Origin: a virus
Taxonomy: Duplodnaviria; Heunggongvirae; Uroviricota; Caudoviricetes
Virus record (IMG/VR): IMGVR_UViG_2740892442_000004
Strand: one strand, 5' to 3'
DNA: 64,000 nt
The notes below the pieces were generated by a model that saw only the letters and a program-made list of their open reading frames with translations, did not search any database and was not told the DNA's origin. Below are positions 9,703-49,968 of the stretch, piece by piece; the stretch's first letter is position 1, and every line of letters begins with the position of its first letter. The translations under genes were made by a program, and so were the position numbers.

Positions 9703-9777
9703 GATGGTGTAGCTCAGCGGTAGAGCAGTTGGCTGTTAACCAACTGGTCGGTGGTTCGAATCCACCCACCATCGCCA
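9703..9777 (+). tRNA. tRNA-Asn (anticodon GTT)
   Basis: Cloverleaf: acceptor gatggtg/caccatc, D-arm tagctcagcggtagagc, anticodon loop ctGTTaa, T-loop ggttcgaatcc, CCA end. Confidence 0.75.
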
Positions 9778-9782
9778 ATTTA

Positions 9783-9869
9783 GGGGAGTTAGTCCGTAGA
9801 GGTAGCGGTGTAGACTGTAAATCTACTGTCATGGCGACTCGGGTGGTTCGACTCCATCACTCCCCACCA
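9783..9869 (+). tRNA. tRNA-Tyr (anticodon GTA), long variable arm
   Basis: Acceptor ggggagt/actcccc, anticodon stem-loop gtagaCTGTAAAtctac, T-loop ggttcgactcc, CCA end. Confidence 0.65.
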
Positions 9870-9873
9870 AATT

Positions 9874-9949
9874 GCCGGTTTAGCTCAGTTGGTAGAGCAG
9901 TCGCTTTGTAAGCGAATGGCCAGCGGTTCAAGTCCGTTAACCGGCACCA
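9874..9949 (+). tRNA. tRNA-Thr (anticodon TGT)
   Basis: Acceptor gccggtt/aaccggc, D-arm tagctcagttggtagagc, anticodon loop ttTGTaa, T-loop ggttcaagtcc, CCA end. Confidence 0.65.
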
Positions 9950-10269: not shown

Positions 10270-10356
10270 GGAGAGTAGGGAGCATGGTGCTCAAGCGGTC
10301 TTGAAAACCGTCCCATTGTGCAAACGATGATGGTTCGATTCCATTACTCTCCGCCA
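10270..10356 (+). tRNA. tRNA-Ser (anticodon TGA), long variable arm
   Basis: Acceptor ggagagt/actctcc, anticodon stem-loop gcggtCTTGAAAaccgt as in enterobacterial tRNA-Ser(UGA), T-loop ggttcgattcc, CCA end. Confidence 0.7.
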
Positions 10357-21658: not shown

Positions 21659-21930
21659 AAGAATTATGGCGCTTGTTGAGGAAGTCACTCCTCTTACGCA
21701 CTTTGTTTTGCCATGCCGGCAGTTAGCTTCTGCCTTTGACTATTCATGCGGCAACCCCGCATTTCGCCACAATGGGCAATTCACTTTTATGGAATAAACT
21801 GGCCGTTGTGTCGATTTAATTAGCATGGCCTTACCATGCTAATTTATTCAACTTGTACAATCCTACAAATCTATCCACTCAGGCTTACACCGTCTTCGTT
21901 ATTGTAGAAATGAGGATCATCAGCGTTGAA

Positions 21931-22146
21931 TCAGCTTAGAGCAACGACATTTGCTGCTGCTGGGCCTTTAGCCCCATTCTCGATAGAGAATTCGACCTGC
22001 TGGCCTTCTTCCAAAGTGCGGAAATTATTACTCTGAATTGCCGAAAAATGTACAAAAACATCTTTACTGCCATCAGCAGGAGAAATAAAGCCAAAGCCTT
22101 TATCAGAGTTAAACCATTTTACTAAACCAGTCATTTTATTAGACAT
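21931..22146 (-). CDS. cold-shock protein (CspA family)
   Basis: [21 protein letters not shown]...[11 protein letters not shown] motifs; close to enterobacterial CspA. Confidence 0.8.
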
Positions 22147-22475
22147 AGATATTACCTTCTTAATTTTGTGAGCCACATAGTGCGGCGAGAATTTGATCTG
22201 TATAGATTGGGACTTACTTAGGCACTTAAGGAGGAGACTCACGAAGAAGGGAAATCAGAAGATAACACTGAACTGAGACTGCTTTACTAAAACTGCTTAC
22301 ATAAGGTCTGTCTTGCAAACCAACGATGCTATTAACGCATACCCCTTCTTTTCATGCAACCTTTATTTTTCAAAGATAACTAATTTTTGTCACCATTGGT
22401 TTAGTAAACGTTAACGAACCAGACGATGCCAGACACCTTTACAGAGAACAGATGCCCGCCAATTGGCGGGCATCA

Positions 22476-47139: not shown

Positions 47140-47733
47140 ATGATTGCAGCCGAAAAAATCAAACAGCGAAAGCGCGACAACTCTCTTCGTGACCTCTGGA
47201 GAACACCTGACTGGCTGTTTTCTGCCATTCAACGTTATCTTGGAGTGACATTTGATGTTGACGTTGCCTGCAACAAGGACAATGCAAAGCTGCCTAATTT
47301 CATAGGCGTTGAGCGTGATGCTTTGAAATCTGAATGGGGACAGCCAGGTACAATTGCCTTCCTCAATCCACCCTACTCCAAAATCTCCCCCTGGATTGAT
47401 GCGGCTATACGTGAGCAGGCTCGCGGAGTTACAACAGTGATGCTAATTCCTCAATCCCTAGATACAAAGTGGTATGAGCGTGCAACAGAGTGTGCGAATG
47501 AGACGATTATTCTGTCTGGTGGCCGCGTAGCGTTTGTCGAGCCTGACGTCAATCTGGGTCAGGTAGAAGTAAACATCAACCCAGGTGGCAGTATGCTCGT
47601 TGTTTTTCGAGGATTCTGTCAGGACGCTGGGCACTCTATAAGCAAGATCCCTTTGGACGTCATGAAAAGTCTGGGAGGGTATGATCCTGCGAATGTGATC
47701 AGGAAAAAAAGACCATCAAAGAAGGCTGCTTAG
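47140..47733 (+). CDS. DNA N6-adenine methyltransferase (phage Dam-like)
   Basis: WRTPDWLF N-terminus and FLNPPYS catalytic motif; 197 aa. Confidence 0.7.
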   Translation: MIAAEKIKQRKRDNSLRDLWRTPDWLFSAIQRYLGVTFDVDVACNKDNAKLPNFIGVERDALKSEWGQPGTIAFLNPPYSKISPWIDAAIREQARGVTTVMLIPQSLDTKWYERATECANETIILSGGRVAFVEPDVNLGQVEVNINPGGSMLVVFRGFCQDAGHSISKIPLDVMKSLGGYDPANVIRKKRPSKKAA

Positions 47734-47755
47734 TTTGTTCTGGCGTCTGTAATTA

Positions 47756-47812
47756 GCCTGCTTCTGTATATATAAATAACTACATATTAATTATTAATAT
47801 ACGGAAGCAGGC
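47756..47812. repeat. Long imperfect hairpin, second copy of element at 782-837
   Basis: gcctgcttctgtatatat ... atatacggaagcaggc followed by tgttttg. Confidence 0.5.
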
Positions 47813-47918
47813 TGTTTTGTATCAGAGACTCCAGACCTGAACATCACTACAGAATCCACTAGAACCCCTTCCCAGACGCTTTAAAATCGATTTTATGAAT
47901 CACTTTAAGGAAACTAAC

Positions 47919-48149
47919 ATGTCATACCCGACTAATGTCGTTGCGCTCGTAGAGAGCGATTTTCTGGCCCAGGCCCGTGAAATGATGAAAGACCGCGAGC
48001 AGGCTTTCAACTTGTACGAATGGGCAATTAAGTGCTTGCATCTTGGGGAGCATCGCGAACTTGTTGAACAGCTTTTAGGTGAGTTGATCAACGAGGTGTT
48101 TGCCTTGAATGTTCAACTACATGGTCGAGAAAATAATCAATCGAAATGA
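47919..48149 (+). CDS. hypothetical protein
   Basis: ATG 47919 preceded by AAGGA; ORF opens at 47895. Confidence 0.4.
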   Translation: MSYPTNVVALVESDFLAQAREMMKDREQAFNLYEWAIKCLHLGEHRELVEQLLGELINEVFALNVQLHGRENNQSK

Positions 48150-48169
48150 TAGATAAGTACAAACTATTC

Positions 48170-48650
48170 ATAAAATGAATTGTAAGTGCTAAGATCTGAT
48201 AGTTTCCAGTCGTAGACTGGAGACTCGACCTGATGGGTGGGGGTAAGCGTCACTGGCGTCAGGTTTAAAAAAGCTCACTACCAGCGTAGAACCGGTGCCG
48301 TTTAGGTGTCGGGGAAGGGGGAACCAAAGTGAGCGGAGACAAGGGTCACTTTATGATTGTCGAGTCTGGGGTGTTTCGAGAGGTTGAATCCAGTACTCCC
48401 CTTCATAAAGTGTGGGAAGATCTCGGTTCTGGGGTGCTGTCATCCATAACTTCCCAAGTCTAAGCTGGCAGTAGACTTAGGCCATAACTTTTCAGGTTAT
48501 GAAACGACCAGGTTGGTGAGGGATTTTTATACTCACCTCCCTGGGAGAGTATTACCTGAAAAGACAACCTCTCACTTCGTTCGAGGTGAACTTCACTCAC
48601 TTCGTTCGTTCAGTTCAGGTTTATAAAAACCTGTTCTGGGAAGTAATTTG
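48170..48650. other. ORF-free, GC-rich, hairpin-dense tract (candidate structured RNA or origin-associated element)
   Basis: About 480 bp with no ORF of 60 aa or more on either strand, and several local inverted repeats. Confidence 0.3.
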
Positions 48651-48734
48651 TTTATTTTAATAATTATTAACACGCACGCGTGTGCGCACGCGCGAGGAAA
48701 AAAAATCGGCGCGGCGCTTGATTCAGGAGTTTAT

Positions 48735-49325
48735 ATGACGACGAAGACACCAGCCCGATCGCAAGAAAAAACTCGCAAAAAAGCCAAAAACAAAAATTCT
48801 CCCCGCACCAATTCCACAACGCCTGTCGTAGAGTTCAATCCCCAGCTTAAAACCGTGAAAATCTTCAGTGATGGCTCTTGCCTTAAAAATCCGGGTGGCC
48901 CGGGCGGTTACGGTATCGTTCTTCAGTATCGTGGAGAGGAACGCGAGTTCTCAGATGGTTTTCATAGCACCACCAATAACCGCATGGAGATGATGGGGGC
49001 ACTTATCGGGCTGGAGCGTTTGAAATATCCATGCAACGTTATTTTGCACTCTGATAGCCAGTATCTGAAAAACGGCATGACACAGTGGATGAAATGGTGG
49101 AAACGCAATGGATGGGTGACTTCTGACAAAAAACCGGTAAAGAATGTTGATCTGTGGAAGCGTCTGGATGAGGCTGCAAGTCGACATAATGTTCGCTGGA
49201 AGTGGGTTAAAGGTCACGCCGGGCATCGTGAAAATGAAATATGTGATCGACTCGCGAAGATCGCAGCTTTTTCCGCAGCAGATATGCCTCACAAGAAAGA
49301 TATTGGTTTTGTTTACAACAAGTAG
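48735..49325 (+). CDS. rnhA: Ribonuclease HI with Lys/Arg-rich N-terminal extension
   Basis: [49 protein letters not shown] RNase H motifs; AGGAG Shine-Dalgarno. Confidence 0.8.
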
Positions 49326-49473: not shown

Positions 49474-49968
49474 ATGGCACGTCAAACCTATTTCACTTCT
49501 GCAACTAAACGTCCTCGTTCACTACGTCAAATTTTGGCCGAATTATTTAGCGGTCGTGTTCTGTCACGTCTTGATGAACTAGAGACTGCCGTTCGGTTGA
49601 TGAATGAACGTTTAGATAAGCAAGCGTCAGTTGTTGCGAACGTGGGGGCGATTGTTACCTCTGGTTCTTCACGCGAAGCGAAAAGTACACGGCCTTTAGT
49701 GAAGGAGAAAAACAACAAGGACAGTTCGAATGGAAAATTTTCAAAGAAAGAGGCTGAAACCAATGGCCTACGTTCTCATTATAGTTTCACTGGCGACGGT
49801 AGCCGTTCCAGCCGGCCAGAGCCTTTTGATGCCGGGTTCATCCATCACCACACCTCCGTCGACGACAATTACCACCACTCCAGTAGAGCGTCCTGTCACT
49901 CTGGATGGGATGACGGTGGATGCGATACCTCAAGTTCATCCAGTTACTCAGGATCATGCTGTGACTAA
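49474..49968 (+). CDS. hypothetical protein
   Basis: 164 aa ORF; Ser/Cys-rich C-terminus. Confidence 0.4.
   Translation: MARQTYFTSATKRPRSLRQILAELFSGRVLSRLDELETAVRLMNERLDKQASVVANVGAIVTSGSSREAKSTRPLVKEKNNKDSSNGKFSKKEAETNGLRSHYSFTGDGSRSSRPEPFDAGFIHHHTSVDDNYHHSSRASCHSGWDDGGCDTSSSSSYSGSCCD

Follow-up and report, generated by a model that had tools for sequence, protein, structure and literature searches.

Candidate gene for a large structured RNA between orf84 and rnhA of SSU5-like phage-plasmids

The locus between orf84 and rnhA

The DNA analysed here is a viral record of 64,000 nucleotides (IMGVR_UViG_2740892442_000004 of IMG/VR, referred to below as the window), which derives from an SSU5/pHCM2-like phage-plasmid of E. 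coli. We studied the tract that separates two of its + strand genes, orf84 and rnhA, and concluded that this tract is very probably the gene of a structured non-coding RNA (ncRNA). Both genes belong to a + strand block devoted to nucleotide metabolism and replication, which comprises nrdAB, thyA, dfrA, genes for a 3'-5' exonuclease and a Dam-like methylase, orf84 and then rnhA. The 1.1 kb around the tract matched the Escherichia phages CMS-2020a, PhiR41_1 and Cyrano at 97-98%, Salmonella phage SSU5 at 83% and Klebsiella phage-plasmids at 78%. With the intergenic part alone, matches were obtained in 687 PLSDB plasmids of Klebsiella, Escherichia, Enterobacter, Salmonella, Citrobacter and Cronobacter, the Salmonella matches including pHCM2 of S. 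Typhi CT18. The tract was present in 232 of 5426 complete E. coli genomes (~4%), nearly always as a single copy on a plasmid of ~110 kb. No RNA is annotated at the locus in any record; in the Cyrano record an open reading frame (ORF) of 44 aa inside the tract is annotated as CYRAN_81, 'hypothetical protein'.

The upstream neighbour is always orf84 (47919-48149, +), which encodes a 76-aa all-helical protein of phrog_5343 (PHROG E = 8e-53) with no Pfam match. Only 29 clusters of orf84 proteins were found, all from SSU5-like elements of Enterobacteriaceae. The AlphaFold model of the protein consists of three helices (predicted local distance difference test score, pLDDT, 80), and its comparison with the PDB gave no fold match with E below 5 and no Rop-like match. 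The downstream gene, rnhA (48735-49325, +, ATG at 48735), encodes RNase HI (Pfam RNase_H, E = 1.6e-44) with a basic N-terminal extension of ~37 aa.

In the original prediction the tract was placed at 48170-48650 and described as GC-rich, devoid of longer ORFs, full of short inverted repeats and ending with an alternating GC tract. ORFs of at least 60 aa are indeed absent from both strands between orf84 and rnhA, the longest having 44 aa on the + and 46 aa on the - strand. The composition was misjudged: the GC content of 48170-48650 is 46.8%, as against 46.1% for the whole window, and only the 5' half (48201-48420) reaches 52%, with a strong excess of G over C (skew +0.29). The quoted inverted repeat, ccagtcgtagactgg, sits at 48206-48220, within a hairpin of 11+11 nt (48201-48225). 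The alternating GC tract cacgcacgcgtgtgcgcacgcgcg is real, but it lies at 48671-48694, beyond the proposed end, with an AT-rich spacer in between. The boundaries had accordingly to be redrawn, and the functional unit extends from ~48167, if counted from the promoter, or from 48201, if counted from the RNA, to ~48660.

Three features mark the 3' side of the unit. The AT/U-rich spacer (48646-48669) varies in length and sequence, and it probably holds the 3' end of the RNA or a terminator tail. It is succeeded by a perfectly alternating purine/pyrimidine tract of 25 nt (48670-48694, +), which is prone to form Z-DNA; its length differs between lineages, yet the tract itself is retained. Overlapping it, a GC-rich hairpin with an A8 loop (48684-48717, +) is located just 5' of the rnhA ribosome-binding site.

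Fold, strand and conservation of the RNA

The suspicion that the tract is structured beyond chance was borne out by folding. The minimum free energy of the + strand was -169.6 kcal/mol, compared with -139.3 ± 5.7 kcal/mol for dinucleotide shuffles (z = -5.3), and none of 100 shuffles folded as well; the z value of the - strand was -3.6. A covariation analysis across relatives, which had been proposed as a check, was performed on an alignment of 21 diverse sequences (A3) with a model, curated by hand, that comprises 104 pairs in 16 helices, and it gave a strong compensatory signal. In this alignment standard pairs occupied 96.5% of the pair cells. Changes on both sides were seen for 33 of the 104 pairs, compared with 11.9 ± 2.5 after shuffling of columns, where 33 was not reached in any of 500 trials. 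When the 3' partners were slid by 1-3 columns, only 3-8 both-side changes were counted and pairing fell to 33-50%. At least one compensatory pair was found in 14 of the 16 helices counted, and at least 12 helices, distributed over three domains, can be regarded as supported. With RNAalifold, eight compensatory pairs were detected already in the set of close relatives.

The RNA (~460 nt, 48201-48660, +, its 5' end inferred from the promoter and its 3' end approximate) begins with the terminal hairpin P1 (48201-48225), of which 23 distinct sequences were found, all capable of folding (-3.9 to -16.8 kcal/mol). It is followed by the 5' domain (48229-48334), which contains P2 (48229-48235 with 48257-48263; four pairs changed on both sides), P3 (48273-48278 with 48329-48334; three such pairs) and the P4 hairpin (48292-48299 with 48305-48312; two). 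A candidate pseudoknot, PK1, between CUGG (48253-48256) and CCAG (48281-48284) never varies. The invariant motifs of this domain are GGGUGGRGG, UACCAGCG and GGGGAAGGGGGAACCAAAG.

The central domain (48347-48482) is the best supported in terms of individual helices: both sides were changed in seven of the ten pairs of P5 (48347-48356 with 48403-48412), in five of the seven pairs of P8 (48458-48464 with 48476-48482) and in three pairs of P7 (48413-48419 with 48450-48456), the last two helices being paired in 100% of cells. P6 (48362-48369 with 48390-48398), P6b (48375-48379 with 48384-48388) and P7b (48432-48436 with 48441-48445) complete the domain, and its internal loops AUCUCGGUUCU and CUGGCAGUAGA are invariant or almost so. 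Next come the P9 hairpin (48483-48488 with 48496-48501; one compensatory pair) and P10/P10b (48508-48520 with 48532-48544; two compensatory pairs). The loop of P9, UUUUCAG (48489-48495), could form a second pseudoknot, PK2, with CUGAAAA (48556-48562), which is paired in 93.6% of cells. In the alignment PK2 varies on one side only or by unpaired cells, in a stretch that MAFFT misaligns; inspection by eye showed it to be kept, through a matched deletion in locus L164 and an A:U to U:A change in L161 (L-numbers denote the related loci compared). Two further candidates, PK3 (48314-48320 with 48398-48404) and a long-range pairing of 48378-48386 with 48565-48573, show one compensatory change each and 96-98% pairing.

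The 3' domain (48565-48645) is built around two copies of a 13-nt motif, CUCACUUCGUUCG, which form a direct repeat at 48571-48583 and 48596-48608; the first copy is in the loop of a hairpin closed by ACCUC/GAGGU. The copies are followed by the P12/P13 hairpin (48609-48640) and the conserved sequence GUUCUGGGAA. Both clades preserve the motif and its ~25-nt spacing, with covariation in the stems that flank it (UGAAC/GUUCA versus GAAACC/GGUUUC); in the Klebsiella lineage the second copy cannot be paired unambiguously. GAAA or UUCG tetraloops take the place of the P4 and P11 loops in the divergent clade. Three other pairings were tried and rejected: a long-range helix between 48221-48229 and 48359-48367 was paired in only 75%, and neither a GAGGUG switch between two CACUUC copies nor a triple GUGAG/CUCAC complementarity was kept in the divergent clade (clade B, which includes L161).

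The alignment also allowed the strand to be assigned. Cells with G·U outnumbered those with A·C by 213 to 19 (11:1), and when the helices were read on the - strand, pairing dropped to 87.5%. This bias indicates that the structure belongs to a + strand RNA, and not to DNA or an antisense transcript. It bears directly on the possibility that the conserved object is a DNA-level element, such as a site for recombination, packaging or protein binding, or just the conserved edge of a cargo hotspot. The two 13-bp direct repeats 25 bp apart, the Z-DNA-prone alternating tract and the slot just downstream, in which cargo genes are swapped (see below), would suit such an element. However, compensatory changes keep the pairing, and an 11-fold greater tolerance of G·U than of A·C would make no sense in duplex DNA or on the other strand. 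The conserved promoter and discrete transcript described below also argue against this explanation, which we regard as very improbable.

The ORF annotated in Cyrano raised the question of a small protein, either the 44-aa product of CYRAN_81 or a peptide resembling a type I toxin. In its favour, the ORF is annotated as a coding sequence and is listed as 'expressed' in Table 1 of the Cyrano paper (PMC9928086). In the window the corresponding frame (48329-48463, +) starts with GTG, and it is broken by indels of 1-2 nt in L035, L058 and L070. No ORF of at least 12 aa is common to all lineages, and none is hydrophobic. Substitutions follow the helices rather than codons, and a search for a short ORF with coding conservation was negative. 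The 44-aa ORF thus appears to be spurious, and a protein product is scarcely credible.

Among the elements compared, the core of the RNA (48229-48645) was 95% identical in SSU5, 91% in a Klebsiella phage, 89% in L070 and 91% in a Buttiauxella plasmid, whereas the methylase gene, orf84 and rnhA of the same elements were 73-81% identical at the DNA level. By this measure of sequence identity the RNA is the most conserved feature of its neighbourhood, and long stretches of it are invariant among 49 unique sequences. With orf84 homologues as anchors, a divergent clade of ~67% identity was found (L161, L162 and L169, later also L191, L196, L216 and L228), together with an intermediate member, L164, of 82% identity. 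L165 (Logan SRR8137545), taken at one stage for another divergent homologue, was discarded because nearly every C was replaced by T, which identified it as an assembly of bisulfite-converted reads. The RNA was absent from RNase H-anchored loci outside the SSU5 group, and a pattern scan gave three matches in GTDB species representatives and 55 in metagenomes, all SSU5-like. All carriers of the RNA are thus SSU5-like phage-plasmids.

The RNA was also compared with known families. No family of Rfam 15, which includes RNase P RNA, tmRNA, 6S RNA, group I and II introns, ROOL, GOLLD, OLE, HEARO, raiA, c4 and RNA I, matched it in any lineage, six related loci among them. A permissive scan of 47700-48800 and of the clade B locus L161 gave only chance matches resembling microRNAs. 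ARAGORN detected neither tRNA nor tmRNA within the tract, and a search of the RNA against the whole window for antisense targets returned only chance matches of 10-12 nt. Our literature search, the coverage of which did not extend to a 2026 preprint on phage-plasmid copy number, found no earlier description.

These scans led to a few observations on other parts of the window. The microRNA-like noise stems from a long AT-rich palindrome at 47755-47815, just 3' of the Dam-like methylase gene (GCCTGCTTC...GAAGCAGGC, then TGTTTTGT), which is likely a terminator. The gathering-threshold scan of the whole window listed only cspA and three tRNAs, all outside the tract. The former matches the cspA thermoregulator 5' untranslated region over its full length (186 bits; 21906-22324, - strand), indicating that the phage-plasmid carries a cspA-like gene with its regulatory leader. 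A fourth tRNA, tRNA-Ser(UGA) at 10270-10356 (+), which was missed by the gathering scan and detected by ARAGORN, is located 3' of tRNA-Asn, Tyr and Thr (9703-9949). The 549 nt from 9947 to 10495 fold with z = -7.1 and are equivalent to Cyrano CYRAN_43 ('hypothetical protein'), the top-expressed feature of the Cyrano prophage at ~7000 fragments per kilobase per million (fpkm); this 'gene' probably reflects a tRNA or ncRNA signal.

Promoter, transcript and the downstream slot

Directly after the orf84 stop, a sigma-70 promoter was recognized at 48167-48195 (+), consisting of the -35 hexamer TTCATA (48167-48172), a 17-bp spacer, a TG extension (48187-48188) and the -10 hexamer TAAGAT (48190-48195). 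Across 107 unique upstream regions the two hexamers hold the same register despite variation in the sequence that separates and surrounds them. The -10 pattern TAnnnT occupies the same position in all 107: 85 were found by pattern, every one of them TG-extended, and the 22 of Klebsiella type (TAGAAT) by eye; the other variants are TAAGAT, TAAAAT, TACAAT and TAACAT. Nearly all of the 85 regions scanned also have TTnAnn 17 bp farther upstream. A generic promoter scan was too strict to list this promoter. The start predicted from its position, ~48201-48203, coincides with the first base of hairpin P1. The sole promoter-like site on the - strand (48208 to 48179) is directed away from the RNA. At the other end, homology stops at the equivalent of 48658 in L154, where an insertion sequence of the IS3 type has entered, and a scan for canonical intrinsic terminators found none.

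Evidence for transcription was taken from published RNA sequencing (RNA-seq) of Cyrano-bearing E. coli LF82 (PMC9928086, S1 Table; five conditions, 10 samples); at this locus Cyrano is 97% identical to the window. CYRAN_81, which lies inside the RNA, gave log2(fpkm+5) values of 6.8-6.9 in LB and up to 10.3 in macrophages at 6 h (6.8-10.35 over the 10 samples), compared with 3.1-5.8 for orf84 and 2.6-5.0 for rnhA in the same samples. Its signal was thus ~8-40 times that of both neighbours in all five conditions, and its level parallels that of the putative repressor. The authors of that study called CYRAN_81 a 'moron', expressed 12-fold above background (PMC9928086). A high signal flanked by two low ones suggests that in lysogens a discrete transcript begins after orf84 and mostly ends before rnhA.

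The same profile would be expected if the tract were a cis-acting leader or attenuator of the operon of rnhA (or of cargo genes), in which the fold senses a protein, a metabolite, temperature or the state of the phage and sets the extent of read-through, the RNA seen in lysogens being the terminated leader. The sharp drop in signal between the RNA and rnhA in every condition is in line with this, as are the nearly constant co-orientation of the downstream gene, the lack of a separate promoter found before rnhA and the conserved GC hairpin ahead of its ribosome-binding site. Mutually exclusive pairings can also be drawn, namely P6b against 48378-48386/48565-48573 and P7 against 48449-48456/48637-48644. 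These alternatives, however, lack covariation support, the scan revealed no canonical pair of terminator and antiterminator, and with ~460 nt and at least 12 helices the RNA far exceeds known bacterial leaders in size.

The genes found downstream of the RNA are informative in this respect. RNase HI is encoded within 1.5 kb in 152 of the 172 copies with enough flanking sequence (88%); in the other 20 the RNA is intact and rnhA is replaced by other genes. The slot contains a TIR-TPR gene in L142 (6033-8501), Gabija-like OLD-TOPRIM and UvrD genes on the opposite strand in L170 (2895-4231), a 200-aa gene without known match followed by a Tad2-like gene in L161 (3329-4416) and likewise in L169, an IS3 element in L154 (7884-9004), and a lipoprotein gene in L153 (1340-1888). 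Where rnhA is replaced, the junction falls right after the A-run, and the alternating tract is still present in L142 and L153. Since the RNA is kept where rnhA is not, it is not merely an rnhA leader, and the slot behind it constitutes a cargo hotspot. For a leader in general, a downstream gene class that is not constant is a further difficulty, and in L170 and L153, where the next gene is on the opposite strand, the RNA is still ~90-93% conserved. Taking these observations together, we consider a dedicated leader unlikely, though by no means negligible.

On the far side of the slot is a conserved gene, orf164 (phrog_10411; 49474-49968), whose product has a low-complexity C-terminal third rich in Ser and Cys and no Pfam match. 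Searches of Pfam and PHROGs with orf84, orf164, orf65 and the clade B 200-aa gene were uninformative. A different arrangement was found in L166-168, in which the orf84 homologue is followed by another structured sequence of ~440 nt (L166 2255-2700; z = -6.6) and then by two RNase H genes. The sequence from L166 had no match in Rfam, plasmids, phages or IMG/VR, and nhmmer detected no homology to the RNA studied here.

The frequent proximity of an RNase HI gene, directly downstream in 88% of the copies, draws attention to a primer RNA of the ColE1 kind. A G-rich transcript would stay on its template, be cut by RNase HI of the phage-plasmid or the host near the A8 run (48698-48705) and prime a secondary, perhaps lytic, origin. 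The RNA resembles ColE1 RNA II in its length and its A-run, a likeness that serves as a lead and not as a test. Here ~500 nt separate the RNA start from an A-run preceded by GC-rich sequence, the 5' half has the G skew of +0.29 mentioned above, an AT-rich spacer is present, and in L166-168 a structured, non-homologous sequence again lies between orf84 and RNase H genes. On the other hand, nothing in Rfam matched as RNA I, no Rop-like fold was found for orf84, and the RNA is retained where rnhA has been dispensed with; in L154, moreover, the IS3 element parts the RNA from the A-run. The original prediction had likewise offered a secondary origin as a candidate, and this part of it found no support: the seven DnaA box matches in the 64 kb are at chance level with none near the tract, no iterons or tandem repeats were found, and the cumulative skew rises monotonically through the region without an inflection. 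The replication gene of SSU5 is ~18 kb away and is flanked by large intergenic regions of its own. A primer or R-loop origin is therefore improbable.

Proposed action and relation to known systems

The other candidate put forward at the outset, a novel structured ncRNA, is supported by the absence of an Rfam match, the covariation, the position-conserved promoter, the strand specificity of the G·U pairs, the lack of a conserved ORF and the published RNA-seq. Our preferred reading goes further: the tract would specify a large, folded + strand ncRNA of ~460 nt, made in lysogens from its own promoter and acting by its fold, which in addition limits transcription of rnhA or the cargo genes. To this combined statement we assign a probability of roughly 0.55. 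In such a scheme, the host-type sigma-70 promoter behind orf84 would place the start of the transcript at the foot of a protective 5' hairpin, and the U-rich spacer ahead of rnhA would be where most transcripts end. The RNA would work through its three-dimensional fold, not by antisense pairing. The invariant loops and junctions, among them GGGUGGRGG, AUCUCGGUUCU, CUGGCAGUAGA and the duplicated CUCACUUCGUUCG, probably offer surfaces to which a protein partner or further copies of the RNA would bind, which would liken the RNA to sequestering or scaffold RNAs and to the phage-borne ornate RNAs ROOL and GOLLD. In lysogens, its strong stop probably also restricts how much transcription reaches rnhA and the variable cargo slot.

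Several points weigh against this preferred reading. The candidate pseudoknots are mostly invariant, and none of the candidate long-range pairings shows more than one compensatory change. Only four or five lineages, namely clade B, L164, L170 and that of Klebsiella type, contribute most of the compensatory changes, which means that the independent events are fewer than the cell counts. The abundance of the transcript is moderate (~117-1270 fpkm), below that of typical housekeeping structured RNAs, and the published read counts may not be specific to one strand. As the 3' end is approximate and the scan found no canonical terminator, the drop before rnhA could reflect processing or cleavage by RNase H. 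Finally, the mechanism is deduced from anatomy.

With respect to its kind, the RNA has the features of a large 'ornate' phage ncRNA, being longer than 400 nt, phage-borne and non-coding, with many covariation-supported helices, and it is a new family within a known kind, the large structured phage-borne ncRNAs. More tentatively, it may represent an unrecognised class of ornate RNA with tertiary structure, comparable to ROOL, GOLLD and OLE and maybe self-assembling, catalytic or the core of a ribonucleoprotein. If so, such a molecule would be available in a genetically tractable enterobacterial system, in a phage-plasmid family that occurs in ~4% of complete E. coli genomes and in numerous plasmids of Klebsiella, Enterobacter and Salmonella. 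Few large bacterial RNAs have many helices backed by covariation, and those that do have repeatedly proved to be ribozymes, ribonucleoprotein cores or, recently, RNA-only cages. The carriers of the RNA studied here, phage-plasmids of E. coli, Salmonella and Klebsiella (with pHCM2 of S. Typhi among them), also bear resistance genes and defence cargo, and the RNA is expressed in lysogens, also inside macrophages; current annotation passes over it or lists one part as a hypothetical protein. It may act in lysogeny control, in copy number, in governing the cargo hotspot or in something new. As genetics, RNA-seq data and inducible phages exist for these elements, the function is directly testable.

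Comparison with better known systems reveals partial likenesses. The P1/P7 C4 and P4 CI immunity RNAs are likewise made in phage-plasmid lysogens from the start of an operon and limit downstream lytic or cargo genes. However, they are processed to 70-80 nt and pair with repeated targets, whereas the RNA described here has no Rfam c4 match and its GUGAG/CUCAC complementarities are lost in the divergent clade. CsrB/RsmZ and 6S RNA are also stable structured ncRNAs, and the repeated loop motifs of the present RNA could, like theirs, bind a dimeric protein; it differs from them in having only two motif copies, no enrichment of GGA loops, no rod-with-bubble shape, no Rfam match and no known partner. 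RNA II of ColE1/pMB1 shares more of its outline, being a folded, constitutive plasmid transcript of ~500 nt that ends near an A-run and is associated with RNase H. In contrast to RNA II, no antisense RNA I, Rom-like protein or evidence of an origin was found here, the helices and loops are much better conserved and more elaborate, and the RNA is kept where rnhA is lost.

The last comparison is with ROOL and GOLLD (PMC5737381, PMC12286853). Their covariance models give no match to the present RNA, which is shorter (~460 nt versus 581 to >800), far more invariant in sequence and confined to one phage-plasmid family of Enterobacteriaceae, and which is not beside a tRNA island, that of the window being 38 kb away. 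The likeness lies in the general character of these molecules: all are large, multi-domain orphan RNAs of phages or prophages, defined by covariation and non-coding. It extends to their genomic setting, since non-homologous RNAs can occupy equivalent slots in those systems and, in the SSU5-like elements, the same position behind orf84 is taken in L166-168 by a different structured sequence.

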